Positions 1-59,379 of a stretch of 64,000 bases of DNA are shown in pieces. Numbering within the stretch: position 1 is the first letter of the stretch; each line of letters starts with the position of its first letter. The DNA is from Candidatus Thalassarchaeum sp. GTDB taxonomy: Archaea > Thermoplasmatota > Poseidoniia > Poseidoniales > Thalassarchaeaceae. A program made the translations under genes and the position numbers. Below the pieces are notes generated by a model that was not told the DNA's origin, did not search any database, and was given only the letters and a program-made list of their open reading frames with translations. Location of the stretch: assembly GCA_045559735.1 (NCBI GenBank), contig JBJLJN010000013.1, positions 1,343 through 65,342 on the forward strand, given 5' to 3'.

Positions 1-77
1 AGCCAAGATGTAAGAGCCTCATCTGAGATGGAGCCGTTGACCACTCCCTCTACGAGGTCGCGGATGCGCTCGGACAT
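1..77 (-). CDS. 5' end of an unidentified CDS running off the window edge (26 codons visible)
   Basis: The minus-strand ATG at 77..75 overlaps the TGA stop (79..77) of the upstream 1523-aa ORF as ATGA. It reads MSERIRDLVEGVVNGSISDEALTSW.. to position 1. This is too short to assign a family. Confidence 0.35.
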   Translation of the reverse strand, partial: MSERIRDLVEGVVNGSISDEALTSW

Positions 78-11997: not shown

Positions 11998-13209
11998 ATG
12001 AGTGACGGGGGTCTGCTACAGAAGGCGATAGAGCAGCAGTCCGGTTCTCAAGACGAACCCGTACTCATGGCTGACGTGCAACCTGCCGCTTCTACAGGAT
12101 TTATTTCCGCCCCGATTCGTTCAGGTGCCGGCTTAGCCGTATTAGCTCTAATCTCGTCTTTAATAGTCTCAAGACCAAGTGTCCAGAGTGAGTATTCATT
12201 TTTGGGAATCATCCCCCTTCTAATTTTCGCAATCTCGTTCTATCTTGTGTGGAATGCAATCGGAAGGAAGCAGACTGCTGCAATAGCCGTAGTCTATCTC
12301 CTGCTCGCAGCTTCACCTTATCTGGTCATGAGCCTCACCGCAGGAGAGATTACAGTAACTGACTCTGAACTTTCAGACGATTCAACCACCATCACTTTGA
12401 CCATCAGAGAATCTGGCGCAATCCTAGGGTCATCTGTGGATTCTGCAGATGTTTCAATCACCTACGATGGTGACGAAGTATACTCGGAATCGATGGCCTT
12501 CTCAATTAACAGAGAGGATGGGTACAGTAAGTATGGAGAAATAGATCTGACTGTAGTAGATTGGTACGACGGAAACGCAGCCGACGATGCTGAGTATGTC
12601 GTGACCGTCGATGTTGGCAGTTCTTCTGACTCTATGCAACTGCAGTCTCGGCATCTACAGAGGACCGTTGATGACGTGAAAGGGGAGACCTTAGGGGCTA
12701 TTGGTCTAGGCAACGACTGCGGAGAATCCAAGGACTCTTGTATAATCGGTGTTGCTCTGAAATCATGGTCCGGTTTGGATGCACTCGGAGACAATCCACC
12801 AGGGGCTCTTCCGTTTGCAGACTATACGGTACAAGCCAACATGTATTTTGACTCCAGTGTTGTTATCTCTTACCCTCTAGTCACAGTTGTGAATGGGGTC
12901 GCTGAGTGGGATTCAGGCAACGGAGAGTACGGAGGAGGTAGCGCTCTGTTGGCCGACGACGGTTCCGAACTTCCTCTGCCTGGTTCGGTTGAGTCATTCG
13001 AACTCAATACCAAGTACGTTCCAATCGAGGACTGGGCGGTAAACGACTACGGATGCTATCACTTCACAGTCGAGGTCACGCAGACCTCACCTTGGTCCGA
13101 TGGCGCGACCTTGTCTCAAACCTCATTCTACGAGTACACTGAGGAAGGCGGCGAGACTGGTGGCAACCCTACTAACGAGGCATGGACAAGGGTTACTAGT
13201 TGTGACTAG
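11998..13209 (+). CDS. Membrane protein (N-terminal TM helices plus acidic extracellular domain), function unknown
   Basis: 403-aa ORF with ATG at 11998, preceded by GGGGAG 5-10 nt upstream. Hydrophobic helices GAGLAVLALISSLIVS, LGIIPLLIFAISFYLVW and AAIAVVYLLLAASPYLVMSL. The remainder is acidic and Ser/Asp-rich. Confidence 0.65.
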   Translation: MSDGGLLQKAIEQQSGSQDEPVLMADVQPAASTGFISAPIRSGAGLAVLALISSLIVSRPSVQSEYSFLGIIPLLIFAISFYLVWNAIGRKQTAAIAVVYLLLAASPYLVMSLTAGEITVTDSELSDDSTTITLTIRESGAILGSSVDSADVSITYDGDEVYSESMAFSINREDGYSKYGEIDLTVVDWYDGNAADDAEYVVTVDVGSSSDSMQLQSRHLQRTVDDVKGETLGAIGLGNDCGESKDSCIIGVALKSWSGLDALGDNPPGALPFADYTVQANMYFDSSVVISYPLVTVVNGVAEWDSGNGEYGGGSALLADDGSELPLPGSVESFELNTKYVPIEDWAVNDYGCYHFTVEVTQTSPWSDGATLSQTSFYEYTEEGGETGGNPTNEAWTRVTSCD

Positions 13210-14927
13210 TGCTCATCTTTAGAATACTCTGAGTCAGATTCCTCATCCTCTAAGATGGCATCTGAGGCGCGCCTGAGCATCGTGGCACCTGCAATCGCCA
13301 TTGCCACTATGATAGCAGCCAGCAGAGGTAGCACTGGCAGAGAATCATCTTCGACGGGCTCAGTCCAGGTCGCCGGTAATGTCGTCATACTGCCTCCTCC
13401 AAAGGCATCATCCTCAACCAACTGCGTTGGAGTTAGTATGCGACAAGACAGAGAAGCATCTCCAATCTGAGAATACCTCCATCCAAATGACACTTCGACT
13501 GTCTCTCCCGCATCTATCCTGACTTGCTGATATCCTCCGATATCTGCTTCTAAACCAGTTTCGGCAACTTCGCATGTGAAGTAGAGTAGAGCCGCAGCAG
13601 TTCCTCTATTGGCCAAGTTAGCAACCACAGGCATTGACTGTCCTCTTGCTTTGGATGTTGAATCCTCACGTATTGTTAGAGACTCCCATTCAACATATGG
13701 AATTCCAGAATCCAGAACGATGGATTCTGACCAATCTAGACTCGCTAATCCTCCTCCATAGTTACCTATCTCAGACGAAGCCGGGTTCCAACCAGTTTCG
13801 TAAGAGATAACCTCGATTGTCGCAGACTCGGACCAGACAGTTCCATCAGCCCAGCCAATCTCAATCACTCTCTCATTTCCGCCATTTACGTATGCAATTC
13901 CATTTTCATCACTGAATACCTCTTGAGTTGACTCCTGAGGGCCGATACCAGAGAGTCTCAGAACTACATACTTAGCATCAAGCTCCAGTGTCTGCTCTGC
14001 TAACCTTCTCTCCCATCTATCGATTAGGCCTCCTGATCCAGAGGCAGTTTGGCTCCAGTAAATCAACGAATCAGGCCCTGCTCTGATATCATGATCATCC
14101 AAACTCATTGAGAATGATGACAAAGTACCCATGTCAAAAGCGCCTGAGTTTCCAACTATGACTGGTCCAACTCTGTCGAATTCAGTACCCAAGGCTAACA
14201 CTCCTGTAAGTGAGTCGCCACCCAATCCCCCATCGACAAATATCTGAGCACCCAGAATAGTCGAACTGTATGTATTCATTGTTCCATCAACAAATATTTG
14301 GAACCCCGGTTCGCCTGCTCCCATCATGTTCATTGTTTCTAATTCAGAGCCTAGAATGGTAGTCTCTCCCCCTGCCTCGGTACTGATTGTAATCGAGGCT
14401 ACATACGAAGAACTCGTTGAATAACCTGTAAGTCCAATCCAGACATCACCAGTACCATCCTCAAAGTAAAATGTATGGGAACTTCCATTGAGAGTAATCC
14501 ACTCTGCGCCAATATGTGCTGTATCGCCGAAGTAACTATCTCCTACAATTGTACTCATCTCTACTTCAAATGAACCGGAAATACCTTCTCCCGGTACCTT
14601 GAATTTGGAAATATTTTGCTCGTCCCAATATCCCATACTAGCTATTGCCGTTGGTGGGGCTTGGGCGATTAATGAAGAACGATCTAATGTGAGCTTACCA
14701 CCATCATCGACATGTATGCTTGAGCCAGAGACCATCTCAATATCTGCTTCCTCAATCGTTAAATGACCACCGTCAATTATCCTAATTGTATCTTCAATGG
14801 TTTCATCTCCATTCCAAGTGACATTTCCACTGATTACGGTCTCTGAATCCTCAGCGAAAACCACCCCTGAGACCAGGAGAACGGAGGAAATCATCAGAAT
14901 GGATTGTAGCAATGCGGCGCACCTCAT
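13206..14927 (-). CDS. Exported surface protein with C-terminal TM anchor and acidic tail, function unknown
   Basis: Signal peptide MRCAALLQSILMISSVLLVSGVVFA. Repetitive beta-rich sequence and a CARDB-like segment (VVANLANRGTAAALLYFTCEV). C-terminal helix LPLLAAIIVAMAIAGATML then RRASDAILEDEESDSEYSKDEH. Its stop overlaps the stop of the convergent ORF 11998..13209. Confidence 0.7.
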   Translation of the reverse strand: MRCAALLQSILMISSVLLVSGVVFAEDSETVISGNVTWNGDETIEDTIRIIDGGHLTIEEADIEMVSGSSIHVDDGGKLTLDRSSLIAQAPPTAIASMGYWDEQNISKFKVPGEGISGSFEVEMSTIVGDSYFGDTAHIGAEWITLNGSSHTFYFEDGTGDVWIGLTGYSTSSSYVASITISTEAGGETTILGSELETMNMMGAGEPGFQIFVDGTMNTYSSTILGAQIFVDGGLGGDSLTGVLALGTEFDRVGPVIVGNSGAFDMGTLSSFSMSLDDHDIRAGPDSLIYWSQTASGSGGLIDRWERRLAEQTLELDAKYVVLRLSGIGPQESTQEVFSDENGIAYVNGGNERVIEIGWADGTVWSESATIEVISYETGWNPASSEIGNYGGGLASLDWSESIVLDSGIPYVEWESLTIREDSTSKARGQSMPVVANLANRGTAAALLYFTCEVAETGLEADIGGYQQVRIDAGETVEVSFGWRYSQIGDASLSCRILTPTQLVEDDAFGGGSMTTLPATWTEPVEDDSLPVLPLLAAIIVAMAIAGATMLRRASDAILEDEESDSEYSKDEH

Positions 14928-17011: not shown

Positions 17012-17125
17012 CGATTTCTTATGCCGATTCACGGAGCTTGAATTAGCCAACCATTCTACGAATGGTTATAACATCCAGTCAAATCGGCGCGACGCTGGCC
17101 TTTAGGTCGAACACGGTGATTGACG

Positions 17126-20100
17126 ATGAATGAGAATGATACCGCGGCTGAAACTGCGCCTTCCCAGACGGGAATCGCTTCCGCCCCAGCGGTGCTGGTA
17201 ACACTACTAGCACTGTTCTTCGGGGCCGATTATGTCGCGAATGGAGTTATGGAAAATGATGGATATATGCAAGTCCTGATTCTGCCCGCCGTAGCCACAC
17301 TGGCTGCTGCGTTAGGCAGAATGGGTGCCTTTACTTCATTCGGCCAACTCTCCAATTACCGCAGCGCTATTGTGATCTTTGGATTCATTGCTGCCGCGGC
17401 AACCATCTCTCTTGCCTACAATCTGTTTGAAAGCGTTGGCAAGCTGGGAGCATTTACCTTCGCTTTGGTCGGTATTTCGACGTATGTACTGACCCGTTCA
17501 GAGAGAAGGGAAGAATCCAGTATCCTGCTTTCCGTGGTCGTTGGATTCCACTTCGCCGTGTCCCACGCCGCTAACTCGGTGTTGGATTCATCGGACTGGG
17601 CAGGTGCGGCACATGACTTGCTGGATGCCGAGAGGGCCGCAATGGCATCTATCTTCTTTGCATTCTGGGCTACATCAATCGTGGCTGGCGTTATCATCAC
17701 TACTTTGATGAGGCATAGATTGGATTTAGCGGGCTCTGGAGCCTTCGGAAAATCCTTATCGCCATCCGGCCGAGTTATGATGGCAACCCTGACGACCATC
17801 CTGTTGGTCCAAGCGATACCACTGGTTTGGCTAGGGCAACTATCCGGAGTCCAAGAGTACGCCAATCATGAGTATCTTGGCTCTGTTTGGGCGTTGTTCA
17901 CTACTGTGATAGTGCTCTTCGTTACGCTTTGCTACTGTGAGAGGTGGAACGTCATCGGCGCCCTAGTCTCTGTGAACTGGCTGCTGTACACTGTGGGACA
18001 TCTGCAAGAGATAGGGAACGAGTTCCCAAGCTTCCTATCTGGCGAGGATGCGATGAGCACGTTCTCTTGGTTCTTCATTGGTTTCTGGCTCAACGTCGCT
18101 GCAATCATGATCGCCTCCCGTGGCTACTTCGGGGACGTTTCTCCGAGGCACGAACCGAGTCAGGCGCGAATTTGGTGGAGCAACAACTCCTATTCAGTCA
18201 TGGTCGCCCTAGCGCTTTTCGTCGCATTCGCCGTCAGGACTGGATGGAACGTACTGCCTGCGATGAACGCCTCGGCCACCGGCCTGTGGGATATGACCGG
18301 TGGCTCCGACCCTTGGTACATGAAGCGAGTCGTCGATTACATCGTAGCTGAGAGGAGCCACTACATCTTCGACCACGACAGAGCCTATCCGATGGGGGCG
18401 ATTAACCCCCGTCCACCTCTCTTTTCATGGTCACTCGCTCTAGGGGGAATTGGACTATCTTGGCTTCTTGAGATGCCGGTAGACGAGGCGACTTGGTGGA
18501 GCGTCGCTACCATGCCAGCGGTCTTTGGTGCGCTGATTGTACTACCAGTGGCTGCAATCGCAAAGAACGTACACAGTAAGGGAGCAGGTATCTTGGCGGC
18601 TTGGCTGATTGCCCTGATGCCCGGACATATCTCGCATGCAACATTCGGGCTCGCGGACCACGACTCCTTTGCACTCCTTTTCCTCTCTATGGCATTCTAC
18701 TACTGGGTCAGGGCGATAGAAAATCTAGGCACGGACAAACTCTTCCTGAATCCGAGCTCCAGCCCGCTGTATCTGCTGGCAGGAATTAGAGAGACCTGGC
18801 ACAGGAATCCACTTGCGATGGCTTTCGCCACAATGTCTGGCATCTCTTTTGCTACTGTCGCTCTTGGTTGGAAGGGATTCGTATACGGCCCAGGTATTCT
18901 TTTCCTCGCTTTCTCGGGACAGATTGTTCTCAACATGTTCCGCAAGAGGGACAGCCTGCCTCTTACGTCCGTAGCTTTACAGATGCTACTCACTTCCTTC
19001 TTCATACCACTCCCATTCTACATGTGGCCCGGACTCAACCTCGTATTCGATCCCAGTGGATTCCAGCCGATGTTCTATATCATCGGATTCACCATAGCTC
19101 TGGGATGGGTCGCATCCTCCTTCAGAGACAAGCCTTGGCTACTGGTATTAGGCACAGGAGGCCTGTTGATTGGAGGAATACTGATGATACTGTATATCCT
19201 ACAGGAGCTGGAGATCTACAACGGCTGGGATATCCTATTCACAGGTGGATTCTATTTCTCAAAGAACAAGATTTTCGGCACCATCGGAGAGGCTCAGGCG
19301 CCAAGCAGAGGAGTTCTATTTGCTTCCTATGGTCCAGTGGTAGCTCTGATTGCTGTAGGCTGTGCCTTCGTCCTGATGTGGCGTGGCGCCCGCAGAGGAC
19401 GTCAGAGCCACTTACTATTGGGCCTCTGGGTAGTTATTTCCACTTACATGGCATGGTCGGCTGGCAGATTCATCTTCAACGCGACTCCTGCAATGGCGGT
19501 TGTTGGAGGAATAGGCTTAGCTATGCTCTGGGAAGGGGCCAATTTCACCTCATTTGTCAAGGAGTGGCGTCGCTCGGGTATAGGAACTCCGAGAACTAGG
19601 TTCAGGTCGGCCTGGCCAGCGGCCAAGCGCAATCCATCAATCCCCGCTATTCTAGTCATCCTGATGATGGTTGCCTCACAGCATGCCACCTATGGGATTG
19701 ACTCGGGAATTCCTCGAGGAGAGTCTTCTGCGTCAGATGTCGATCAGACGATTCATGACATAGCACCTGATTTCCTCAGAGCCGAGCTACTTGGCCTATC
19801 AGTACTGAAGAGCGAGGGATACAATCCAGAATCTGAGATGTGGTACATGGGAACATTCGGACCTGGATTCAACAGCGGCTCTTGGAATCTGGCCTACGAT
19901 TGGCTGTCTGAACAGGACTCGGATGTGGGCTTCAGCGAGAGGCCAGCCTTCGTTTCTTGGTGGGACTACGGATTCCAGGCGCTGGCCCAAGGCCAGCACC
20001 CCACTGTGGCTGACAATTTCCAGTCAGGAATCCCCCATAGCGGAGGAATGCTGCTTTCCAACAGTCAGGAGGACACCCTGTCCTTGTTCATCACCACGCT

Positions 20101-23100
20101 CGCGCAAGGCGATCGTCGTTACCATGATGGAGACGGATTCACCGACTCTTTCAGTTCAGTTCTCTCTGAGCACATGACAGCTGATCAAATTGAGGAGTAC
20201 AACACCATACTCTCAATCGAGGTCAACGACGAAGCCGAAGTACTATCTAGAGCAATGGCCATAGTCGCTACTGATGGCCATACCGAACTACTTCGTGGCT
20301 ACTCTCTGAATTCCGATGGTCTGCCTGAGCCAGAAGAGAAGTGGATTGTCCTGATTGGTGGGACTCAGATGGGCAACTCAACTGACAACGAGATGGATGC
20401 CTTAGAGCTGTTCAATGCCACCAGACTCAATAACGCCCAATTCGATATAGATAACACACACTACATGATTGGAGGGTACAGATACACCCGCGATTTAATT
20501 GAGGACTTCAATGATGTCTCCACTGGCTTACACCGGACCAATGCGAAACTCGCATTGAGCCGTGCGTTTCTTTCGGCCGCCTTCGACATCAACTCGCTGT
20601 CTGACATCTATCACGACATCACCGAACTAGACTACGAGGTTCAGGATTACCAAGGGACCCTCGGCCAGACTGTTGTTAGGAATAATGATATCCGCTATTT
20701 CGCAATTGATAACAGACTGTATCCTCTTGGAGGCTCTTACTATGGAGACTATCAGTATCATCGCGGACAGACAACCGGTATCTTCCATGCCCCCACCGGT
20801 CTTTCCGGCCTTGACCTAGACGATTACATCACTTCAGTCTACGAGACTCAGAGAGGAGAGAATGGCCCAATCATCCCGAGAACTGCTGAGGAATATGAGA
20901 AGGAGTACCTGGATGACATTATCCGTCAGAGCTCAGGAGCTTCTTCTGACTCAACCGAGATTATCAGAATGGTCGATATCGACTATCAGCAGCAGGCCGC
21001 CTTCTTTGAGACTATGGTGGCGAGATTCTACGTCGGATACTCGACATCCCTGCTCGGACTACCTGGAGATGCCGAGCAACCTGCTCCTCACTTCTACATG
21101 ACAGGTACACCAGGCTCCTACTTGGAGAACGCTTACCCGCTTCCCGGAGCGATGATGAATCACTTTGTCATAGCCAATTGGTATGACCAAGAGCGCTGCG
21201 ATTTACTTCAGAATGGCTCCAAGGCAGATGAGAATTGCACTAACCCGACCATCGGCTCAGCAAATACTCAAGTCAAGATTATGAAGTACTACAGCGGTGC
21301 AACCTTGGAGGGTACCGTAGAGCTAGAAGGCATTGGCCCAATACCCAATGCTAGAGTAATGTTCGAGCGCGACGCATTCAGCGGCGAAGAGATTCCTGAT
21401 GCCGACGGTAATATTGTCGATGCCGATGACAGGACATACTGGATTCCAATTGGATATTCGGATGCCGATGAGAACGGCCACTTCTCGTTCACTGCGCCAG
21501 CAGGTAAGATCAGAGTTTCCGCCTTCATCGGAGATGCTGACCTCGATTCTGCCAGATCGGCAATGATGACTGGAGATGTAGGGCAATCACTAAATGACCT
21601 TTTTGAAGATACTTCTGCAAGTCGCAGCGTCAATCCGATTACTGGAATTCTGGCCAACGTGTCCGGAGCAACCTGGTTGTCTGAAACCATCGTCAACATT
21701 TCCGGAGAGGCCGGCCACAGTAATGGAGAGCACACTGTGTATGGCAATGTCTCTGTCCAACCGTCCCACGCCACTGGGATGCTGGTCTGGTCTGGAGCTG
21801 AATTCTTCGACCAAGACCCACTTACTGATGTGACTGTAGAGATTACCCTTTCTTCCGACCATGTTCAATTACCTCCATACTCGGCAACGACTTCCAGTGG
21901 TGTCGTAGAAGGCTATGACCTGACCTTCGGAGGAATCGGCCAAGTGTCATTTACTGGCGAAGGCTCATTGATATCTCAAGGAGTTGTCACAGTAACTGAC
22001 TTCACAGGCAATCACACCCAGACTATTTCACATAACCATAGCCTTACTGGTGATGGTTTGTTCTCCGGCCGCGGGACTCTATCCGGCATCATTTCTGATG
22101 ATATCGAAATTCCCGATTGTGGTGTCAATTCATCAATGCCTGAGAACCATTCTGTATGCAATCTCTCATCGGGAGATTTCTTGATTGAAGGCGATGTGAA
22201 TGCGACCGGGCGATTCACTTCCAATGGCACCACCGCTTTCAAGAGGAGCCTGAGTCATGCCACCTTGGTAGGTTCGGGAGTGTTTGAAGTTAATACCGCC
22301 GATGACTTGGAGAACTATGGAACTATCAACGGAACCTTCGCTACAGTAGAGGGTGAAGGTATCTTCAGCGGCCCGATGGTCCAACCTGGGACCTTCCACT
22401 TCGTCGATGCAGTGCCTGGAGAGTATGATATTGCAGTTATTTTCGGAGATGAGACCAGAGTCGAACTAGATGAGACATTCACCATACCATTGTTCGGAAA
22501 CCCTGAGGTTTCCACCGTACACATCGCTGGTGGTTCGATTAGTGGCTATCTGCTAAACTCATCTGGTTCTCCAATCAATGCCTCAGTAGCACTGCTTGAG
22601 GAAGATTCTATCTCAACTGATGCCATTGAGATTTGCGATGAACCTGAATCCACACCTTGCTTGCTAATTCCAGATACTGAAGGGTTCTTCGAGTTCGGCC
22701 CTATTGTACCGGGTAATTATACGGTTCAGACCGATGTGGATGGAGATGGTTTCCCAGAGCTCTCTGAGGATTACGTATTCGATTCTGTGTCAGATATAGC
22801 AGTCGAGTTCCCTTCTCCGGTTCCAGACAAATCAGATCTTACCTTCACACTCATTGAGAACGGGAATGAAGCACCCAATCTGAACTTGACACTGCGTCTG
22901 AAGAACGGCACCGGAGATTCTGCTGTTGTCGAATTCGATAACGAGTCCGGAGTCTACAGAGCAGAACTGGCTCTCGGGACTTGGATATTGAATCACACAC
23001 TTTCTGATGAATTGCAACTGTGGGAACAGATTGAAATCGGCGAGGAAGACATCAACGCAGAGTATCAGTTTCAAGTTAGTATTCGCGTTGATGGCACCGT

Positions 23101-26100
23101 ATTCTACGAGGAGAGCCTTGAGGCCCAAGATGGCCCCGATCAGGAGAAATTACTCGATTATGTTCCTGTCGAGTTCCACTGGGATGGATTCAGTACCGTA
23201 GTAGAAACAGATGGAGGTGGGCAATTCTCGGTTATTCTCCCCGAAGACTCAGTAGTCGATGCCACTGTTCAGTTGGCCGGGGCTATGCTGAATCTAGTGA
23301 ACGGTACTAGGTTCACGGTTACTTCTGGCGGACCTAGTATCGGAGGAGAAGTGTATGACAACCTAACTCTGCTGGCTATTCCTGGTTACGCTGTTGAGGG
23401 TGTGGTAAACATCAATCGTGAGCACAACCCACTGCTATCTTACTATGGCGGCTGGAAGCCAATCGTTGTTGTCGCGGACAATTCTGAGACCGATGTCCGC
23501 TGGCACACAGATGTAAGGGAAGACGGCCATTTTGAGATGGCTCTACCAAGGGGCAATTGGACATTTGATTTGGATGCCGACTGGATCGCATCCATCCCAG
23601 CCTATCTTGATGTAGATGGCAAGAACGACACCGTAGAAGTAATCACGAATCCAATCAATAGCACTGTGACCGTTTCTCTATTCATGGATCAAAGCGGCGA
23701 CAATAATGCATCCAATGGGACTCCAGTCACATTCCCATTCGACATAGTTGATGCATTCAACAGTTCGAGAGTAGTCTACAAGGTGGATGGAAATGGAAGC
23801 GAGTGGGCTGCGGAAGGTTTGGCGGAATTCTCTCTTGAGCCTGGATTTTATCGTATCGACATCTCTTCATCTAACTCAGAGGATAATCTCTTCGGCACCC
23901 GGATAATGACCGGTAATACGCGCTTCGATATAGGGCTACTCGGTAACTCCATCGATAGATCTCTAGGCTTCGACCCAGAGTGGAGAGTCAATATCACATT
24001 CACAAATGAGAGTGGCGGAGTTCTTTCTGGCCATTTAGTGGAGATGACAAATGCTCAAACTGGATGGATTCTTTCTCACATGACTGATGAGAACGGGATC
24101 TTGAATGCCCATATTTCTGAGGGAGAATGGATAGTTTCTATCGGACCGTTTGAGACCGCACAGGGGGTAACAGAGATTCTGCGCGAACTCGTCAGCTCTT
24201 CCTCGGAGAATGCAGGAAATGACATTTCTATGTCTACTGCACAAGTGGCTGAATTCGAACTGTCATTGTTTGAGGACTATTCAGGAGATGCGCTTGAAGG
24301 AGTCTCAGTTTCCCTCGAATCGCTTGAGGGATTGGGTTCATTGCAAATCAGTCCTACTGATGCCTCAGGTCTGACAACGGTGGACGTAGCTCCCGGCGAT
24401 TGGCTGATATCACTCAATATAACTGAGAGCGGTCAGAGATGGGTCATTGTCGAATCCGATAACACCACTCTTAATGCCTTCTCTGGCGATAACCCGCGTA
24501 CGAACCTAACAGCCAACAAATTCGTCGAATTGAGTGGGAATGTATTCTGGGACTTCAATGATGACAACTCTTCAAATGTAGGGGAGGGTCTTGAAAATTC
24601 TTCAATTCTCATTGTAGGCCAAGAAAACAACCACTCGGCCACCACGGACAGCAGCGGAGATTGGTCGACCTATGTCCCAGCTGGTACATCTTGGACCGTC
24701 GAGATTTCGGCCGATGGATTCTTGACTCAGAATTTCTCTACCGAAGTGTCCGGAGTCTCCAACTCGGTTGACACTGAAATGTCAGCTCTTCCAGTCTCTG
24801 TTCAAGGGACAGTCTCATACATTGATTCTGAGCAACTATCCTCTATATCCGAAGGAGTAATCCTTGAACTGATTCCGGTTGAGGGGATGGTTCGTGAGAT
24901 AGTTACCCCCGAGAAGGAGATCTTGGATGGATCTTGGACTGGCAACTGGTCAACCGAGGTCGAGCCAGGAGGGTGGATTCTACGGGCCAGTTATGAGGAT
25001 GGCAACCTGATTGCTATGGGGCTTGTAGAAGCTGAGGTTGTGATTGGGGGTTACCTCGATCTGGAGATGACTGAGGGCGGCTGGTTCCGAATGGACACGA
25101 AATGGCTGGACTATGAAGGCGCCTCACGGACCCTCGCAGATACAGATTTGGCAGAATTCAATATGGTCGACGAGCCAAATCTGATCATAAATATTGGAGC
25201 TGGGATGGAATGGGTTCAACCGGTCAACCAAGAGGGCTTCATAGAGATGCTGATGATTCCTGGAATCATTGATGCATCCAGCGAGTTCGAAGTTATACAG
25301 CGAAACCTGACCATGTCCTACACAGGCGGACAAGGAGTAACGATTAGCCCCGGACAGGAGTCCCCTCCGGTCACTCTGTCGCACGTGCGCATAGCGAACC
25401 ATGAGATCTCAGTTTCATTTACCAACAACTCTGGAGGAGATCCCGATTACGAGGGGACAGCAGACAGTGCTAGAGCAGTAGTAGACTCCGAAGGAGGATA
25501 CGACCCAATCGTGTTCCAGATGTCTGTAGAATACCTCGGTCACGAACCATTCGATTCATTCAGCATCACGGGAGAAACCGCCGGAACCGATGGCAGTGAT
25601 TGGCTGGTCGAGTTCCACAACGGTTCCGGACTATGGAATAGCACATCTGAGTTTGACATGGGCCTAGATAACGTCCTGAACTTCTCGGACTTACACGTCA
25701 GGGTGACTCCAGCCAATCAATCTACAGCCCATTCTTTCGCCAATGGCCATACCGTATCGATGACTATCGCATCCACTGATGACGGTTACATGAAGGACCA
25801 ATCTGTGGTTGTTAAGATTCCTCAGATCCATGGTTTCGAGCTTACAGAGCCAATGGATGAGGCCTATGGCATCGAGCCCGGGGAGTCCATTGCCACGGGA
25901 ATAAAATTCACCAATTCTGGTAATGGTGACGAGCTCTACGAGTTCGAGTTCGATGACTCGGAACTACCCGATGGATGGATTCGCACAGGTTCAACATCAC
26001 ACACTATAGGGGCTTTCGTCTCCTCTACTCATAGCGTGTCAGTGATGTCTCCAGCGAATGCAACTGATGAGGAATTCACGATCTATGTCTCAGTTAGAGA

Positions 26101-26620
26101 CAAGGCGAACAACACATATCCAGACATTGAGATTAATGTTCAGACTTCAATGCCCTTACTCCGGATTGTCTCGCATCAGAACTACAATGGTGGCGAGGAC
26201 GCCGAAGCGGGCCAGACTGCACTGTACAAAGTCGTGGTCGTGAACACCGGACTCGTAGATGCCCAGCAAGTGCAGTTGAACGGGACTCTGTGTGATACAT
26301 ACAGTAGTTGTCCGAGTGCTCCCGGTACTGGAGTCATGGGAACTGACATCCGTGACGTACCTGCCAACTCTGAAGTCGTATTCGAGATATCCTTCGATCT
26401 CTCCGATATCAGTCCAGCTACTTACTACTTCCATTTCGAGATAAACAAAACAGGATTCGATTCTGTGGAGGACTACTCGATCACGGACATCAAGGTACGC
26501 TCGCCTCCTGTCGAGGAGTCCTCTGATTGGATCGGCTGGCTGTTGGGGGCCATGCTGATTGTCGCATTGCTGACGTTGACAAGGAGAGGCGGAAGACGAA
26601 GAGGCTCGGCTCCGTTCTGA
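17126..26620 (+). CDS. aglB: Giant archaeal oligosaccharyltransferase AglB (STT3 family), fused to an extra N-terminal polytopic domain and ~1,800 aa of C-terminal beta-sandwich repeats with a terminal TM anchor
   Basis: STT3 catalytic motifs in canonical order: EL1 acidic motif IFDHDRAYPMG (D418/D420; 18371..18379), DxD-type GLADHDSF (18656..18664), EL5 TIXE motif FGTIGEAQ (19280..19291), WWDYG (19958..19972) followed by VADNFQSG. Roughly 350 aa with ~8 hydrophobic helices precede STT3 TM1. From about aa 1390 there are carboxypeptidase-regulatory-like and CARDB/Ig-like repeats. C-terminus WIGWLLGAMLIVALLTLTRRGGRRRG. The ORF opens at TTG 17120; ATG 17126 is preferred. Confidence 0.85.
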   Translation: MNENDTAAETAPSQTGIASAPAVLVTLLALFFGADYVANGVMENDGYMQVLILPAVATLAAALGRMGAFTSFGQLSNYRSAIVIFGFIAAAATISLAYNLFESVGKLGAFTFALVGISTYVLTRSERREESSILLSVVVGFHFAVSHAANSVLDSSDWAGAAHDLLDAERAAMASIFFAFWATSIVAGVIITTLMRHRLDLAGSGAFGKSLSPSGRVMMATLTTILLVQAIPLVWLGQLSGVQEYANHEYLGSVWALFTTVIVLFVTLCYCERWNVIGALVSVNWLLYTVGHLQEIGNEFPSFLSGEDAMSTFSWFFIGFWLNVAAIMIASRGYFGDVSPRHEPSQARIWWSNNSYSVMVALALFVAFAVRTGWNVLPAMNASATGLWDMTGGSDPWYMKRVVDYIVAERSHYIFDHDRAYPMGAINPRPPLFSWSLALGGIGLSWLLEMPVDEATWWSVATMPAVFGALIVLPVAAIAKNVHSKGAGILAAWLIALMPGHISHATFGLADHDSFALLFLSMAFYYWVRAIENLGTDKLFLNPSSSPLYLLAGIRETWHRNPLAMAFATMSGISFATVALGWKGFVYGPGILFLAFSGQIVLNMFRKRDSLPLTSVALQMLLTSFFIPLPFYMWPGLNLVFDPSGFQPMFYIIGFTIALGWVASSFRDKPWLLVLGTGGLLIGGILMILYILQELEIYNGWDILFTGGFYFSKNKIFGTIGEAQAPSRGVLFASYGPVVALIAVGCAFVLMWRGARRGRQSHLLLGLWVVISTYMAWSAGRFIFNATPAMAVVGGIGLAMLWEGANFTSFVKEWRRSGIGTPRTRFRSAWPAAKRNPSIPAILVILMMVASQHATYGIDSGIPRGESSASDVDQTIHDIAPDFLRAELLGLSVLKSEGYNPESEMWYMGTFGPGFNSGSWNLAYDWLSEQDSDVGFSERPAFVSWWDYGFQALAQGQHPTVADNFQSGIPHSGGMLLSNSQEDTLSLFITTLAQGDRRYHDGDGFTDSFSSVLSEHMTADQIEEYNTILSIEVNDEAEVLSRAMAIVATDGHTELLRGYSLNSDGLPEPEEKWIVLIGGTQMGNSTDNEMDALELFNATRLNNAQFDIDNTHYMIGGYRYTRDLIEDFNDVSTGLHRTNAKLALSRAFLSAAFDINSLSDIYHDITELDYEVQDYQGTLGQTVVRNNDIRYFAIDNRLYPLGGSYYGDYQYHRGQTTGIFHAPTGLSGLDLDDYITSVYETQRGENGPIIPRTAEEYEKEYLDDIIRQSSGASSDSTEIIRMVDIDYQQQAAFFETMVARFYVGYSTSLLGLPGDAEQPAPHFYMTGTPGSYLENAYPLPGAMMNHFVIANWYDQERCDLLQNGSKADENCTNPTIGSANTQVKIMKYYSGATLEGTVELEGIGPIPNARVMFERDAFSGEEIPDADGNIVDADDRTYWIPIGYSDADENGHFSFTAPAGKIRVSAFIGDADLDSARSAMMTGDVGQSLNDLFEDTSASRSVNPITGILANVSGATWLSETIVNISGEAGHSNGEHTVYGNVSVQPSHATGMLVWSGAEFFDQDPLTDVTVEITLSSDHVQLPPYSATTSSGVVEGYDLTFGGIGQVSFTGEGSLISQGVVTVTDFTGNHTQTISHNHSLTGDGLFSGRGTLSGIISDDIEIPDCGVNSSMPENHSVCNLSSGDFLIEGDVNATGRFTSNGTTAFKRSLSHATLVGSGVFEVNTADDLENYGTINGTFATVEGEGIFSGPMVQPGTFHFVDAVPGEYDIAVIFGDETRVELDETFTIPLFGNPEVSTVHIAGGSISGYLLNSSGSPINASVALLEEDSISTDAIEICDEPESTPCLLIPDTEGFFEFGPIVPGNYTVQTDVDGDGFPELSEDYVFDSVSDIAVEFPSPVPDKSDLTFTLIENGNEAPNLNLTLRLKNGTGDSAVVEFDNESGVYRAELALGTWILNHTLSDELQLWEQIEIGEEDINAEYQFQVSIRVDGTVFYEESLEAQDGPDQEKLLDYVPVEFHWDGFSTVVETDGGGQFSVILPEDSVVDATVQLAGAMLNLVNGTRFTVTSGGPSIGGEVYDNLTLLAIPGYAVEGVVNINREHNPLLSYYGGWKPIVVVADNSETDVRWHTDVREDGHFEMALPRGNWTFDLDADWIASIPAYLDVDGKNDTVEVITNPINSTVTVSLFMDQSGDNNASNGTPVTFPFDIVDAFNSSRVVYKVDGNGSEWAAEGLAEFSLEPGFYRIDISSSNSEDNLFGTRIMTGNTRFDIGLLGNSIDRSLGFDPEWRVNITFTNESGGVLSGHLVEMTNAQTGWILSHMTDENGILNAHISEGEWIVSIGPFETAQGVTEILRELVSSSSENAGNDISMSTAQVAEFELSLFEDYSGDALEGVSVSLESLEGLGSLQISPTDASGLTTVDVAPGDWLISLNITESGQRWVIVESDNTTLNAFSGDNPRTNLTANKFVELSGNVFWDFNDDNSSNVGEGLENSSILIVGQENNHSATTDSSGDWSTYVPAGTSWTVEISADGFLTQNFSTEVSGVSNSVDTEMSALPVSVQGTVSYIDSEQLSSISEGVILELIPVEGMVREIVTPEKEILDGSWTGNWSTEVEPGGWILRASYEDGNLIAMGLVEAEVVIGGYLDLEMTEGGWFRMDTKWLDYEGASRTLADTDLAEFNMVDEPNLIINIGAGMEWVQPVNQEGFIEMLMIPGIIDASSEFEVIQRNLTMSYTGGQGVTISPGQESPPVTLSHVRIANHEISVSFTNNSGGDPDYEGTADSARAVVDSEGGYDPIVFQMSVEYLGHEPFDSFSITGETAGTDGSDWLVEFHNGSGLWNSTSEFDMGLDNVLNFSDLHVRVTPANQSTAHSFANGHTVSMTIASTDDGYMKDQSVVVKIPQIHGFELTEPMDEAYGIEPGESIATGIKFTNSGNGDELYEFEFDDSELPDGWIRTGSTSHTIGAFVSSTHSVSVMSPANATDEEFTIYVSVRDKANNTYPDIEINVQTSMPLLRIVSHQNYNGGEDAEAGQTALYKVVVVNTGLVDAQQVQLNGTLCDTYSSCPSAPGTGVMGTDIRDVPANSEVVFEISFDLSDISPATYYFHFEINKTGFDSVEDYSITDIKVRSPPVEESSDWIGWLLGAMLIVALLTLTRRGGRRRGSAPF

Positions 26621-26666: not shown

Positions 26667-27902
26667 ATGTCTGCCTTAGACAAGCTGGAGCTGATGCCTG
26701 AACCGGATGATCCGAGGATGATGACGGCAGTTGACACAGATGCCCCAGGTTATCCTGGAGATGTATATGGGATATCCGACGAGGCAGCTAGGCAGCTTCG
26801 CTGGCCTGCGGCCCCACTGAAAGAGATATTGTGGCCATGGGGGGCCATTACCTTTGCATTCGGTGCTGCCTTCATGCTACTTGTTTGGCCTTACATCAAT
26901 GCATATATCTCCCCAATTATCCCTGAGACCGAATGGGCCTTCGACTCCACAGGGATTCGTGAGTTACAGGAGTCCGGACTCGATGGTACTGGAGTCCATG
27001 TCTGTATGGTGGATACCGGAATCGACGCCGAACATCCGGATTTCGTCAATCTCTCGTTGGTTGGCTTTAGGGACTTCTACGAGGGTCAGAATGACAATAT
27101 CAGAGACGTGGGTGATGACTGGCATGGAACGATGATGGCCGGGCTTCTGGTAGCCGACGGTAAATTCCGTGGAGCTGCTCCCGGCGTAGATCTTTCAGTC
27201 GCCCTCGCTCTCGGACCCTCTGGCACTTCAGGACAAGAGGACTTGGTGGCACAGGCAGTACGCTGGTGCAGAATAACTCAGGAAGCTGATATAATCAGCC
27301 TGAGTCTAGGGGGCAATCCTGGTAGCGGAATGACAGAACAGTCGCAGACCGCGCGGGCAGTTGAGGAGGCATTAGAGGCTGGAATTTTCGTAGTAGCAGC
27401 TGCGGGGAACAGGGACTCGGATGAAATTTTCTCGGATGTCTCGGTTCCTGCGAATGTAGAGGGAGTGATTGCAGTCGGGTCAATCACTCGAAGTGGAACA
27501 ATTTGGCCGCAGTCCGCAACCGGTTCATTAGTCGACCCATATACGCAACAGAATCGCACATACCCCAACCAGAAACCAGAGGTGTCAGCACCCGGTGTTC
27601 TATTGCTCTCTACTGCCGGTTCGGCATTGGAGCCACCCTATGCCTATTCGTCAGGTACCAGCGACTCGACAGTACTAGTCACAGGGGTCCTCGCAATGAT
27701 ATTACAGTTACATGGAGATGCATTGGAAGGAGAAGATGGTACAATCGGGCCCGAGGACATGGCCCTCGTCAAGAGGTCATTAGCCAGTTCCTGCGATAAA
27801 TCATCTATCAACGAGGCTTCACATGACTTGAGAGGCGGATATGGGTCGTTGGATGCAGTAAAGTGGGCTGATGATGTGGCTTTCGAACTAAATGCTGCCT
27901 AA
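26667..27902 (+). CDS. Membrane-anchored subtilisin-like serine protease (peptidase S8)
   Basis: Catalytic triad contexts VCMVDTGIDAEHPDF (Asp), WHGTMMAGLL (His) and SSGTSDSTVLVTGVLA (Ser). Oxyanion-region SLSLGGN. One N-proximal TM helix (WGAITFAFGAAFMLLVWPYINAYI). Confidence 0.85.
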   Translation: MSALDKLELMPEPDDPRMMTAVDTDAPGYPGDVYGISDEAARQLRWPAAPLKEILWPWGAITFAFGAAFMLLVWPYINAYISPIIPETEWAFDSTGIRELQESGLDGTGVHVCMVDTGIDAEHPDFVNLSLVGFRDFYEGQNDNIRDVGDDWHGTMMAGLLVADGKFRGAAPGVDLSVALALGPSGTSGQEDLVAQAVRWCRITQEADIISLSLGGNPGSGMTEQSQTARAVEEALEAGIFVVAAAGNRDSDEIFSDVSVPANVEGVIAVGSITRSGTIWPQSATGSLVDPYTQQNRTYPNQKPEVSAPGVLLLSTAGSALEPPYAYSSGTSDSTVLVTGVLAMILQLHGDALEGEDGTIGPEDMALVKRSLASSCDKSSINEASHDLRGGYGSLDAVKWADDVAFELNAA

Positions 27903-27992: not shown

Positions 27993-30900
27993 ATGGCTGG
28001 CATGGGACGTACTCGAAGTCACTTCCTAGTATTTCTGATGCTCAGCAGCCTACTCGTGGCTCTAGTAGGGCCCGCCGCCCCCGTCTCGGCGAATAACGAG
28101 ACCACCGCAGGCACAGTCTCGGGTACCGAGACTTGGTCCGGAGTGCACACTCTGACGGGTGATGTTGTAATTGCATCTGGCGCTAAACTGATAATCCAAC
28201 CTGGGACAACTGTGGTCTTCCCCAACGGGACTCATCTAGATGTCCGTGGTAACCTCTGCGCAGGGGTTTCTGCATGTGGGGCAAGCAGTGATGCCAGCAC
28301 AGCTCAGAGAATCACCTTCGAGTGGACAGATCCCTCCAATGGTAGCGCCAGAGGTGAGTGCTACGGCATGAGTTATGGCAACCAACAGATTTGGGTCGAG
28401 GACCCATCTTGCTACGAGGGAGTATTGATTCGAAACACAATCGACCTGTCGCAGACGGGACTCAAGTTCATCACCATAGATGGTGCTTGGGGAATCCCAT
28501 ACTACGTCCCGACGGTCTTCCAGTGGAGGTACGGAGCACTCGTTATCGATGGCGCCAGCCCGGTGCTGAATGAGATCGAATTCTCGGACATAAACACTAC
28601 CAGCGTTCTGACGACGAATCTGGCACAACCTCGGTTCGTAGGTGGGGAATACGTGGTTGGTAATGACGACTCCAGCGGCGTCCGAGGTTCTGCTGTCCAG
28701 ATATACAGTTCTGGCACCCCTGTCACTCCATTGATTCTCGATTCACCGAGCCTAGTTGGGACTAATGTGGGATGCAGTAGGCAGGCACCAAGTAGACCTG
28801 CCGTTTGGGCTCAAGACACCTTCATAGAAATCTCCGATGCTAATGTGGATGTTGGGGACTATGGAATCAGCTTGCGTAATTCAGCCGGAACAATCACCAA
28901 TTCGGAGATTACTGTGAACTGCAATGGAATCGACATCAACAGCAGGAAGGCGATTGGCAACGTAGATTACGAGATCGACATCGTCAACAACGAGATTACG
29001 ACTGGAGATGGAGCACCAATCACCGTCTTCCAGGGCGGTTTGGCCAGTATTATTGACAATGAGCTAGAAGGTGCAGCAGAATCATCCGGCATAGCAATAG
29101 ATTCCAGTGAAGTCAAGATTCTAAACAACGACATAGGGCCAATCGGGGGCTGGAATGGTCTGTGGATGCTTGGCTCGTTCGATGTGATTGCGGAGAATAA
29201 CACAATCCATGACGTGGCAAGGGAGCCCATACGTGCCGGAGAATATGGCAGCAGCGCTCCGGCACCTTCTGCAGCGAGAGTATTCCTCGCCAACAATACC
29301 ATTTCGACTGATGGAACCGGCACATGCAGCGAAACTAGATATGACGATTGGGACGGCGATTTCACCTGTCCCGTTGTACATGCTTACAGATCCGGAATTT
29401 CGATGTACGACAACACGATTAACGCTGCAGGCGATGCAGATGGAATCCGTGCCGTAGGGGCTCTACTTAACATTCAGAGAAACACCTTCAATGTCCCCGG
29501 AACCGGAGCCGTCTTGAAGCACTACAACGATGGTTACGCGGGTTCCCAACAGTATGGGACGCTGGCTTTCTTCTCTCACAACACTTGGTCGGGTGTCGGG
29601 ATGACCTACAATGTCACCAAGAGCTCCGTCACTGTGCAGTCTGAGTACATCCCTTCGCCCCCTCCTAATGTTTACCCAGTGCAATTGGTTTGGTCAGACC
29701 AAGAGGCTTGGCCAGCCAACCAGTTCCAGACTTCCATTGTGCCCACCTCCGTCAAGGAATGCCCCAACTGTGCCGATTTCACCCCGATTGGCTTCCCCCT
29801 ATCGATAGGTGACGGGATGGGCATCTCTTCTGCGATGGACAACAACTCCACCACATTCACATTCGCTAATCTCTCCAACCTCGATCGCACCAAGATTCAC
29901 ATTGAGACTCAGCCCACTCCCTATGCAGTTCAGGTACGTAGGGCGGAAATGGTCCGCTTTCAAACGCTAGTAAACGGGGAGAGGGTCGGGGATGCCAATG
30001 TACTCATCGAGGATGCTTTGGGCAACGATTTGTACTCTCTGTATACCGAGGATGACGGCTATACGCCTTGGTTCGCACTACCTTCAGACTTCCATTTAGA
30101 TATCAGAGGACTAGGGGGAGGGGACAACCCGGACGGCTTCGCTGATGACCAGTACGAGGACTCGTGTAGCGACGGCATTGACAATGACGGCGATCTCACA
30201 GTGGACACTGATGACGAGGATTGCGACTACCTCGCCGGAACTAGGGAACTCTCACGCTACTACTATACTGCATACAGATTCGGATTCGGATATGCCAGAG
30301 GCAACTTCACTCTTACAGACACTACCATGCAAGACACCATCAATATGGCCAATAGTGCCCCTACAGTATACGTCACCCAATCTGACGGCCATTCCTTCCG
30401 CAAGTCCGTCAATCTGACAGGCAGTGCACATGATGGAAATCTCGTAGGAGTTTATGCATCCGATGAGTTGGCACAGTGGGATCAAGGAGGATATGTCCAC
30501 GAGGTCCAAATCAAGGATCCCTTCACCAGCCAGTGGTCAAGCGCAGGTCTGGCTGTGGATACCAGCGGCATGGGCGAGGGGCAGGTCACAAAGACCAACC
30601 GTCCATTCAGTTCGTGGTATTATGAGATAGATATGAGTAACAGAGAGGAAGGGGACTATGTATTCGAGATTCGCGCCTTCGACGGGATTGACTACAGCCC
30701 AATTATTTACAGGACTGTCAAGCTCAATGTGCAGGCTCCAACTATCTCAGTTTCATCACCTAGCCCATTCTCCACACACTCCGAGGGAAGCGTTACCTTC
30801 GAGGGCACAGCCTTCGATCACTATGGGTGTCCTGTGGAATGCAGCAAGGACCTCGAAGACATATATTTTCAAATCCAAGGGCCGAACTTCGAGGTCACTA

Positions 30901-32336: not shown

Positions 32337-32394
32337 TTCATGTCCGGCGCGCCTCTCACGAAACTTCTTGTGTGGATGATTGTGCTCGACCAAT

Positions 32395-55531: not shown

Positions 55532-56194
55532 TCAGTCCCAGAGGTCCTGAAAACCGTTGACCCAGCTCCATCTCAGATCGGTGTGAGGTAGATCTCCGGA
55601 GACGAGTACTCTCACCGCATTTCTTGTGATGGTATCAGAGGGGTACCCCGAACCGACCGAGAATCCCACATCTTCCGCGATTCGGGATATCTCCGCATCT
55701 CTCTTGACCTTGGCCAGAATGCTCGCAGCCCCTGCCACCGGGTCTATGGAGTCCATAGCGTGTCTGGAATCGATCTCCCAGTTCGACCACTCCCCTCCCA
55801 GTCTCGATGAAATCCTTCTTGAGAATCTCAACTCATTCACATCGCATGAGTCTGCCATGACGATGCCGCTAGGGAGACTCTTAGACGAGGCCTCGATGGC
55901 CTCGGAGAAGAGATCGACCTCAAGTCTGTTCAAATCTGAGTGCAGGCTGTTGGAGTCAATTCTCAAAGGCTCGCAGACTACAATTCCAATCCCCCAGCCC
56001 CTAGATTCAGCCTCATCGCGAATGATAGCAGCCACCTGCTCCCTATCTTTCGGTGACAACTGCTTTGAGTCCTTGGCCCCAATTTCGCGCAATGTGTCGA
56101 GTTCGGATTCGTACACACGCAGCGCGCAGACTACTAACGGTCCAATCACAGGCCCCCTGCCCGCCTCGTCTACACCAATCACTGGACGACTCAT
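55532..56194 (-). CDS. rnhB: Ribonuclease HII
   Basis: MSRPVIGVDEAGRGPVIGPLVVCAL (DEAGRG motif), DSKQLSPKDRE, ADSCD and GSGYPSD motifs. 220 aa. Confidence 0.95.
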   Translation of the reverse strand: MSRPVIGVDEAGRGPVIGPLVVCALRVYESELDTLREIGAKDSKQLSPKDREQVAAIIRDEAESRGWGIGIVVCEPLRIDSNSLHSDLNRLEVDLFSEAIEASSKSLPSGIVMADSCDVNELRFSRRISSRLGGEWSNWEIDSRHAMDSIDPVAGAASILAKVKRDAEISRIAEDVGFSVGSGYPSDTITRNAVRVLVSGDLPHTDLRWSWVNGFQDLWD

Positions 56195-59040: not shown

Positions 59041-59379
59041 GCTACTATCGAAAATCCAGAAAGATATCATTTCTGCCCCTTTTCGTTACGTTTTGTACAA
59101 AGTATTGATGGTCTGGGGCATAGTTGCACATCTATGGCATCGAAGTGGCCTTTCACGAAGAAACCGGCCGAGCCACGACAGGTCGCTAAGGCCGATCAGA
59201 GAAAGATAGTCGAATACGAACGCAAGCCTGACAAGTCTTCCAAAGAGAAAATAACCGACCGCAGTCACTTGGAGAACGACTCATTCAAGGAAGCAATGGA
59301 TTTGCTCGGTGGAGACTCAGGTGATTGAATGGAACTGAATCCTTTCAATGGGTAGCAAGGACAGGTGTGAGGGAGTAAG

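Follow-up and report, generated by a model that had tools for sequence, protein, structure and literature searches.

A 3,164-residue AglB-type oligosaccharyltransferase gene with added membrane and beta-domain modules in Marine Group II archaea

Characterised AglB enzymes are roughly 600–1,050 aa long, and in the eukaryotic oligosaccharyltransferase (OST) additional membrane helices ring the STT3 core, as do beta-rich domains on the lumenal side, each of them held by one C-terminal helix with a short cytosolic tail. Enlargement within a single chain is exemplified by mycobacterial AftD, a GT-C glycosyltransferase of ~1,400 aa that carries extra transmembrane (TM) helices and a large extracytoplasmic beta-rich region. 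Here, we describe an aglB-like gene on a 64,000-nucleotide stretch of DNA from Candidatus Thalassarchaeum sp. (contig JBJLJN010000013.1; hereafter ‘the window’, meaning the whole stretch that was analysed) whose product is a catalytic subunit roughly threefold the length of any yet characterised. The gene is genuine, occurs throughout its lineage and represents a variant of a known enzyme that has apparently not been described: it belongs to an ordinary enzyme family, and what is out of the ordinary is its scale, a membrane module confined to the family and a sequon-rich stalk with two anchors. Marine Group II archaea, which rank with the most abundant archaea of the surface ocean, are uncultured, and their envelope is essentially unknown.

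The gene and its conservation

The open reading frame (ORF) closes at 26620 on the plus strand and contains no internal stop, whether read from TTG 17120 (3,166 codons) or from ATG 17126 (3,164 aa), and the competing ORFs in other frames within 17126..26620 are all of 243 aa or less. The placement of a GGTGA motif would favour the ATG as the start. Residues are therefore numbered from this Met1; a first-pass annotation made from the sequence alone had counted from the TTG, giving numbers two higher. The polypeptide has four parts—an N-terminal membrane module, an STT3/AglB core (aa 355–1390 as a whole, comprising membrane domain and extracellular region), a beta extension and a C-terminal TM helix with its tail—and 24 predicted helices, ten of them in the N-terminal module, 13 in STT3 and one at the C-terminus:

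17115..17119, plus strand: GGTGA, possible ribosome-binding site 6 nt upstream of ATG 17126 (read from the sequence)
17126..26620, plus strand: complete aglB-like gene, 3,164 aa and stop (ORF list, translation, full-length homologues)
17126..18187, plus strand: N-terminal 10-helix membrane module, aa 1–354 (AlphaFold2 (AF2) model)
18188..19711, plus strand: STT3/AglB transmembrane domain, aa 355–862, 13 predicted TM helices (Pfam, NCBIfam, hydropathy scan)
19712..21295, plus strand: extracellular catalytic/globular region, aa 863–1390, 61–85% identity across the family
21296..26515, plus strand: predicted extracellular all-beta extension, aa 1391–3130, ~1,740 aa (AF2, Foldseek)
26525..26581, plus strand: C-terminal TM helix, aa 3134–3152, hydropathy 1.79
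26582..26617, plus strand: predicted cytoplasmic Arg-rich tail RRGGRRRGSAPF with terminal Ala-Pro-Phe (APF) (conservation)

Among 5.8 billion protein clusters, 466 relatives score E ≤1e-5, and the best 120 of these 466 are all of the same architecture or fragments thereof. Complete homologues among these 120 measure 3,122–3,338 aa at 42–86% identity, most of them covering 97–100% of the query; more than 100 homologues are full-length, with identity down to ~40%. The family resides in public databases under generic names, as ‘uncultured marine group II/III euryarchaeote’ glycotransferases or Thermoplasmatota ‘STT3 domain-containing’ proteins. In the one-genome-per-species set of GTDB, 465 stretches encode a relative, and the best 80 of these 465 provide all locus-level results given below. 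These 80 are labelled Poseidoniales, Thalassarchaeaceae or unclassified archaeal metagenome-assembled genomes; L027 and L054 come from single-cell genomes, L035 from a long-read assembly. The gene is complete in 49 of them, with a length (3,124–3,258 aa) kept within ~4%, and in every one of the 49 the four parts occur in the same order and at nearly the same length. The gene is present throughout the lineage and universal in the Poseidoniales loci examined, and its three additions date back as far as the family itself.

An alignment of 112 full-length sequences contains almost no gaps and no gap-rich linkers. Mean identity to the window protein in this alignment differs by region:

aa 1–350, N-terminal module: 45%
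aa 351–810, STT3 helices: 75%
aa 941–1000, around WWDYG: 85%
aa 1001–1390, globular region after WWDYG: 61%
aa 1391–1800, proximal extension: 60%
aa 1801–3130, distal extension: 40–47%

Relative to the closest homologues, nonsynonymous divergence (dN) ranges from 0.05 to 0.26 by region, the STT3 part being lowest at 0.05, while synonymous divergence (dS) exceeds 1.4 where computable and is saturated in the distal extension, region-wise dN/dS values being bounds only. Low dN at saturated synonymous sites shows that the whole length is under purifying selection.

These comparisons bear on the simplest alternative, namely that an assembly chimera, a missed stop or a frameshift has joined aglB to a downstream surface-protein gene. 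Nothing was found in favour of such an artefact. More than 100 independent metagenome assemblies contain the same uninterrupted gene, as do single-cell genomes and a long-read assembly; it aligns over its full length down to ~40% identity and ends in a conserved C-terminal APF, all of which makes this explanation so improbable as to be negligible. The uninterrupted 3,164-aa gene of the first-pass annotation is confirmed by ORF, translation and full-length homologues, and the orthologues from all three types of assembly reveal no separating stop, frameshift or chimera.

The catalytic core and the membrane module preceding it

By its profile matches and motifs, the core belongs with the STT3/AglB/PglB catalytic subunits (GT-C, CAZy GT66). 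Pfam STT3 (PF02516) matches aa 365–791 (E 8e-16; 58.9 bits against a cutoff of 24.5), and TIGR04154, the NCBIfam model of the archaeosortase-A-associated AglB subfamily, matches aa 359–983 (E 2.6e-46; model positions 3–575 of 831). Both phmmer and the family profile align aa 366–661 to Archaeoglobus fulgidus AglB-L (3WAJ/5GMY; 3WAJ residues 19–294). Four catalytic motifs and one family motif can be placed in this core:

18299..18319, plus strand: GGSDPWY with catalytic Asp D395, external loop 1, aa 392–398 (placed on A. fulgidus GGNDPWY)
18656..18664, plus strand: second acidic motif D511-H-D513 (aligned to D161-H-H163 of A. fulgidus AglB-L)
19280..19291, plus strand: TIXE motif T719-I-G-E722, external loop 5 (motif scan; inside the Pfam STT3 match)
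19958..19972, plus strand: WWDYG motif, aa 945–949 (aligned to WWDYG of 3WAJ, 3VGP and 3VU0)
20756..20785, plus strand: family motif Y1211-H-x-G-Q-x-T-G-I-F1220, 8 of 10 positions invariant, following a strand-like IRYFAxD

D395 aligns to the catalytic D47 of A. fulgidus AglB-L. T719-I-G-E722 sits between predicted helices 9 and 10 within the invariant block KNKIFxTIGEAQAP and is placed by the Pfam match together with the motif scan. W945–G949 aligns to residues 550–554 of A. fulgidus AglB-L, which puts it ~395 residues later than there, in agreement with the delay of about 400 proposed earlier, and also to 3VGP and 3VU0, two short A. fulgidus AglB C-terminal domains. All four motifs stand in the expected order and are invariant in 29 diverse homologues (47–80% identity). 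The motif order of the first-pass annotation thus holds for the second acidic site, TIGE and WWDYG (noted there as 513/515, 721 and 947), but its ‘D418xD420’ is D416-H-D418 in FDxDRAYP, a separate conserved loop-1 motif distinct from the catalytic site at D395. A loss of catalytic residues, named at the time as evidence that would count against an active enzyme, is not seen in the 29 homologues; rather, their family-wide invariance and the low nonsynonymous divergence suggest that the STT3 core is probably catalytically competent, in support of the activity proposed then.

Outside the WWDYG neighbourhood, aa 863–1390 show no sequence alignment to solved AglB C-terminal domains, and it is conservation that suggests an AglB-type globular domain at aa 1000–1390. 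YHxGQxTGIF (aa 1211–1220) is, by position only, a candidate equivalent of the DK/MI sequon-binding motif. N-X-S/T sequons are not enriched across aa 863–1390 (2.7 observed, 4.2 expected).

The ~350 residues ahead of the first STT3 helix do form the hydrophobic module noted in the first pass, but with ten helices in the AF2 model instead of ~8. This model, built from a 26-sequence alignment, is a confident bundle of 10 long helices (predicted local distance difference test (pLDDT) 84.6; predicted template modelling score (pTM) 0.82), which span aa 19–331 with basic loops on alternate sides according to both hydropathy and AF2. The module has no Pfam family in 10 diverse homologues and no Foldseek match among 350,542 Protein Data Bank chains (best E 0.18, TM ≤0.22). 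A profile search of 1.84 billion representative proteins yielded 56 matches: 12 are giants of 3,146–3,228 aa matched at or near the N-terminus, and the others are shorter proteins that, where looked up, proved to be fragments on contigs of ~0.6–2.5 kb, with two exceptions. These two, on longer contigs, belong to one cluster (that of P0123), whose member P0222 is a 228-aa fragment of the module on a 1.59-Mb contig, maybe a copy that is split or frameshifted in a single near-complete genome. Membership of a known family was ruled out by the Pfam scan, by Foldseek matches at noise level and by the profile search, and that exhaustive search found no stand-alone relative of the module, which occurs, among the 1.84 billion representative proteins, only fused to an AglB-type enzyme. 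Invariant residues are R170, P232, E272, W274, W285, E295, G297, W315, R348, W350 and W351.

By the gene-fusion argument, exclusive association with AglB points to a linked function, and the module might thus be a partner from the glycosylation pathway—a flippase or scramblase that translocates the lipid-linked glycan, or a module for recycling dolichol phosphate—that hands on the donor directly. To our knowledge, the archaeal translocator of lipid-linked glycans has not been firmly identified, and a confidently modelled polytopic bundle whose helices carry invariant charged residues within them or at their ends (R170, E272, E295, R348) would suit such a role. It is, however, an improbable one: the module shows no structural likeness to Wzx/MOP flippases or transporters (best TM 0.22; WzxE only at E ~2 to 3), matches nothing in Pfam and is the least conserved membrane part of the protein, with 45% identity against 75% for the STT3 helices.

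The beta-domain extension, its anchor and the neighbouring genes

The chain beyond aa ~1390, said in the first pass to continue to aa ~3135, is predicted to be all beta from aa 1391 to 3130. AF2 models aa 1385–2584 as ~12 beta-domains (pLDDT 81.9), and we estimate about 16 for the whole extension. Foldseek matches this model, with E values of 3e-12 to 1e-5 at probability 1.0, to stalk and adhesin domains of Bacillus anthracis TIE, PitA, SpyCEP, SdrD, RrgB, BcpA and SpaA and to the extender domains of an ice-binding adhesin. The extension would accordingly fold like bacterial adhesin and pilin stalks, as a repeated prealbumin-like beta-sandwich, and the adhesin-like character ascribed to it from the sequence is borne out by the models. 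Neither a ribophorin, OST48 nor another eukaryotic OST accessory subunit occurs among the 50 best Foldseek matches for aa 1385–2584, ruling out the extension as a ribophorin or OST48 relative by this comparison. The family profile, run against the Protein Data Bank, found no sequence relative of the extension among solved structures and no match outside STT3.

21296..22525, plus strand: most conserved part of the extension, aa 1391–1800, 60% mean identity
24581..24754, plus strand: CarboxypepD_reg domain, aa 2486–2543 (PF13620, E 1.9e-12, 47.8 bits against a cutoff of 32.3)

Scanned in ten overlapping pieces, the extension has CarboxypepD_reg at aa 2486–2543 as its sole domain over the Pfam threshold. 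Sub-threshold signals are found for CarboxypepD_reg or SdrD_B at aa ~1420, 1805, 2114 and 2291 and for DUF11 and DUF7507 at aa ~3012–3108. The carboxypeptidase-regulatory, Ig-like and CARDB-like modules read from the sequence are thus supported by this one domain and by the beta-sandwich model, but CARDB itself is unmatched in the Pfam scan, its only relatives there being the two sub-threshold DUF signals. Precomputed Pfam annotations on homologues include DUF11, SdrD_B, NPCBM_assoc, SpaA and Big_1. A region of FxGxG repeats at aa ~1593–1748 (window 21900–22370) has an invariant F/G pattern with predicted strands of up to ~40 residues; aa 1550–1800 have no Pfam match.

The extension is acidic (16% Asp+Glu, 3% Lys+Arg). 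Pilin domains are cross-linked through Lys isopeptide bonds, which are unlikely here because lysine accounts for just 1% of residues. N-X-S/T sequons number 47 in the window protein against 17 expected by shuffling, and the family mean is 38 against 19 expected (z 5.3), a twofold enrichment; ten of these sequons, at N1524, N1637, N1692, N1735, N2059, N2194, N2197, N2294, N2431 and N2864, recur in 80% or more of the homologues. The extension also contains invariant DxDxDG-type loops and two invariant Cys pairs.

Some full-length homologues show a local-alignment coverage of 42–53%, which raised the suspicion that the C-terminal half had been swapped between lineages. In the sequences read, this was ruled out in favour of an ~80-aa insertion that breaks the alignment. 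Insertions of this size occur in P0001, P0019, P0022 and P0020 near window aa ~1660 and ~2790 and consist of two GG(S/T)GY-containing units, which explain the low BLAST coverage. P0089 and P0097 carry lineage-specific insertions of 70–90 aa near window aa ~1370, just before the first beta-sandwich.

As described in the first pass, the protein ends in a TM helix (aa 3134–3152) and an Arg-rich tail. The helix is present in all aligned homologues, with varying sequence but hydrophobic throughout, and R3158, A3162, P3163 and F3164 are invariant in the 29 diverse homologues; all 49 complete genes from GTDB species genomes (49/49) end in APF. This invariant cytoplasmic C-terminus points to a specific contact. 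No other protein of the window has an APF tail, by which APF was ruled out as an organism-wide sorting signal. An archaeosortase-type signal was likewise rejected: the residues before the C-terminal helix are unconserved, unlike the APF at the extreme C-terminus, and no NCBIfam archaeosortase/exosortase-type sorting model (PGF-CTERM and relatives) matched. Since ten is an even number of added N-terminal helices, STT3 should keep its usual orientation, and 10 + 13 helices would place aa 863–3133 outside and the basic tail inside, the latter in agreement with the positive-inside rule. By predicted topology, the chain is anchored in the membrane at both ends, and the unusual two-anchor architecture seen in the first pass is encoded by a single gene in every assembly examined.

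The resemblance to bacterial adhesins and pilins, including a calcium-stiffened ice-binding adhesin, could also mean that the extension is mainly an adhesin for particles, algae or other cells and STT3 mainly its membrane base, with the role as an enzyme secondary or lost. Marine Group II archaea are often particle-associated, as such a function would suggest. Yet no catalytic residue varies and conservation peaks in the STT3 part (dN 0.05), no terminal ligand-binding domain was recognised in the extension, its far end re-enters the membrane and presents no tip, and length stays within ~4% across the order, whereas adhesins usually vary in repeat number. We consider this reading very improbable.

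Gene order around the locus is orf311, orf403, orf573 (minus strand), CarS, PurD, AglB, S8, a 1,447-aa protein and a STAND/TPR protein, and it is kept in every locus with enough flank. Three genes follow aglB:

26667–27902, plus strand: S8 subtilase, 411 aa, single N-terminal hydrophobic helix at aa 54–72, 46 nt downstream of aglB
27993–32336, plus strand: acidic 1,447-aa protein with signal peptide, right-handed beta-helix, Big_7, C-terminal helix at aa 1353–1371 and acidic tail
32380–34923, plus strand: STAND-type NTPase (AAA_16/ATPase_2); TPR repeats at the C-terminus, weak match to a Crp-like helix-turn-helix at the N-terminus

The S8 protein is probably a membrane-anchored exoprotease, and in each of the 58 Poseidoniales loci with downstream flank the gene immediately following aglB encodes a homologue. 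The 1,447-aa protein is syntenic with aglB across the order at 43–88% identity, and the STAND-type NTPase occupies the same position in all loci reaching so far. Upstream, CDP-archaeol synthase (CarS) is found in 61 loci and PurD in 69.

A single-anchored protease 46 nt downstream, next in 58 of 58 loci with downstream flank, invites the idea that one chain is translated and that this S8 subtilase, or some other protease, then separates an AglB of ordinary size from a surface glycoprotein anchored at its C-terminus, the fusion serving co-expression and co-targeting instead of a joint mechanism. The glycoprotein would have a membrane anchor of its own, and the junction between core and extension does tolerate the 70–90-aa insertions of P0089 and P0097. 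However, the adjacency of S8 is weak evidence for processing because the unrelated PurD and CarS are equally syntenic; moreover, the junction itself, VK..KYYSGA (aa 1383–1392), is invariant and unlike a linker, conservation over the first 400 aa of the extension equals that of the globular region (aa 1001–1390), and the fusion is unbroken in every lineage seen. Cleavage therefore appears unlikely, albeit less so than the other alternatives.

Elsewhere in the window, one RNA gene and five large proteins were recorded:

77–4648, minus strand: large, very acidic protein with N-terminal signal-like helix
4722–7496, minus strand: large, very acidic protein with N-terminal signal-like helix
10830–10904, plus strand: tRNA-Met (CAT anticodon), the sole RNA gene found in the window
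13206–14927, minus strand: large, very acidic protein with N-terminal signal-like helix
35908–41619, plus strand: large, very acidic protein with N-terminal signal-like helix (1,903 aa)
56191–59070, minus strand: large, very acidic protein with N-terminal signal-like helix

A C-terminal helix was seen in all five except the one of 1,903 aa. In the three large acidic window proteins whose C-termini were read, an acidic tail follows this helix, a style of anchoring different from the basic APF tail of AglB.

Proposed function and comparison with known systems

Taken together, the gene very probably encodes a functional AglB that carries these modules and is unprocessed at the gene level, and we infer that its product is the working OST of Poseidoniales cells. 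A metatranscriptome study reports an oligosaccharyltransferase gene of MGIIb as one of those enriched during transcriptional activity of genus O1 (PMC9723583). Like other AglB enzymes, the STT3 core would transfer lipid-linked glycans to Asn-X-Ser/Thr of exported proteins. The N-terminal module and the C-terminal helix may lie against the membrane domain of STT3 and serve it as integral accessories, resembling the additional subunits of the eukaryotic OST in what they do but not in descent. The extension would be heavily N-glycosylated, probably by its own catalytic site or by that of a neighbouring molecule, and is probably stiffened by calcium-binding loops; doubly anchored, it could make up an arch, at most a few tens of nanometres in size, that belongs to a glycoprotein coat and holds the enzyme in the envelope. 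The S-layer-like scaffold and the spatial coupling of N-glycosylation to envelope assembly suggested in the first pass would be further, speculative readings of this architecture.

As a whole, this account—an AglB of Marine Group II (Candidatus Poseidoniales) in one 3,164-aa, 24-helix chain whose parts play the roles proposed—is the best explanation and one we hold to be reasonably likely, while the roles of the extra parts, considered by themselves, are more doubtful and put forward tentatively. Three observations weigh against it. The curated cutoff of TIGR04154 is not reached (158.4 bits against 450), the enzyme therefore being a divergent AglB; the DK/MI sequon-binding motif was not located, there being no alignment to solved AglB C-terminal domains beyond aa ~990; and the AF2 model of aa 1385–2584 has a pTM of 0.46, making its inter-domain geometry unreliable and the ‘arch’ a conjectured shape.

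A bolder version would see a single-chain OST ‘holoenzyme’ that doubles as a major envelope component: accessory parts surround STT3, one of them perhaps handling the lipid-linked donor, the C-terminal helix docks via the APF tail, and a self-glycosylated, calcium-stiffened arch forms or organises the Marine Group II coat. This we regard as distinctly unlikely; if it were true, the enzyme that glycosylates the envelope would itself be a structural element of the envelope.

No account of this architecture came up in full-text searches of the literature, whose range excludes the 2020 AglB survey by Nikolayev et al., and the architecture is likewise absent from the AglB passages of a 2024 review of archaeal N-glycosylation. 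The fusion points to a hitherto undescribed way of organising N-glycosylation at the cell surface and offers testable candidates for functions that reside on separate subunits in eukaryotes, namely donor handling, substrate presentation and anchoring of the complex. Going beyond the enzyme, a conserved, abundant and surface-exposed protein of ~340 kDa would give initial molecular access to the envelope of Marine Group II, be it for metaproteomics, antibodies or cryo-tomography, and the N-terminal module represents a confidently predicted fold without a match in the Protein Data Bank.

Among known systems, A. fulgidus AglB-L (3WAJ/5GMY) and other characterised archaeal AglB enzymes share the 13-helix STT3 and the same four motifs in the same order; AglB-L, too, is a single-subunit enzyme with an extracellular C-terminal domain. 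However, its crystallised construct has 875 aa against 3,164 aa here, and it is without the N-terminal 10-helix module, the beta-domain extension and the second anchor. With the Gram-positive stalks (SdrD B repeats, RrgB/BcpA/SpaA, PitA, TIE, SpyCEP) and the ice-binding adhesin, the extension shares tandem beta-sandwiches of the CnaB/SdrD-B/CarboxypepD_reg type and DxDxDG-like loops. In contrast to the Gram-positive stalks, the protein described here is archaeal, fused to an enzyme, anchored by a TM helix instead of LPXTG and sortase, and nearly fixed in length, not varying in repeat number. AftD, likened here by description only, differs in donor, acceptor and glycosyltransferase family and is without a second C-terminal anchor. 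Finally, the elements of the eukaryotic OST complex (STT3, ribophorins, OST48/Wbp1 and small membrane subunits) find comparable elements in the archaeal protein; the comparison is one of function only, with no homology detected, and what eukaryotes distribute over a complex is here covalently fused into one chain.

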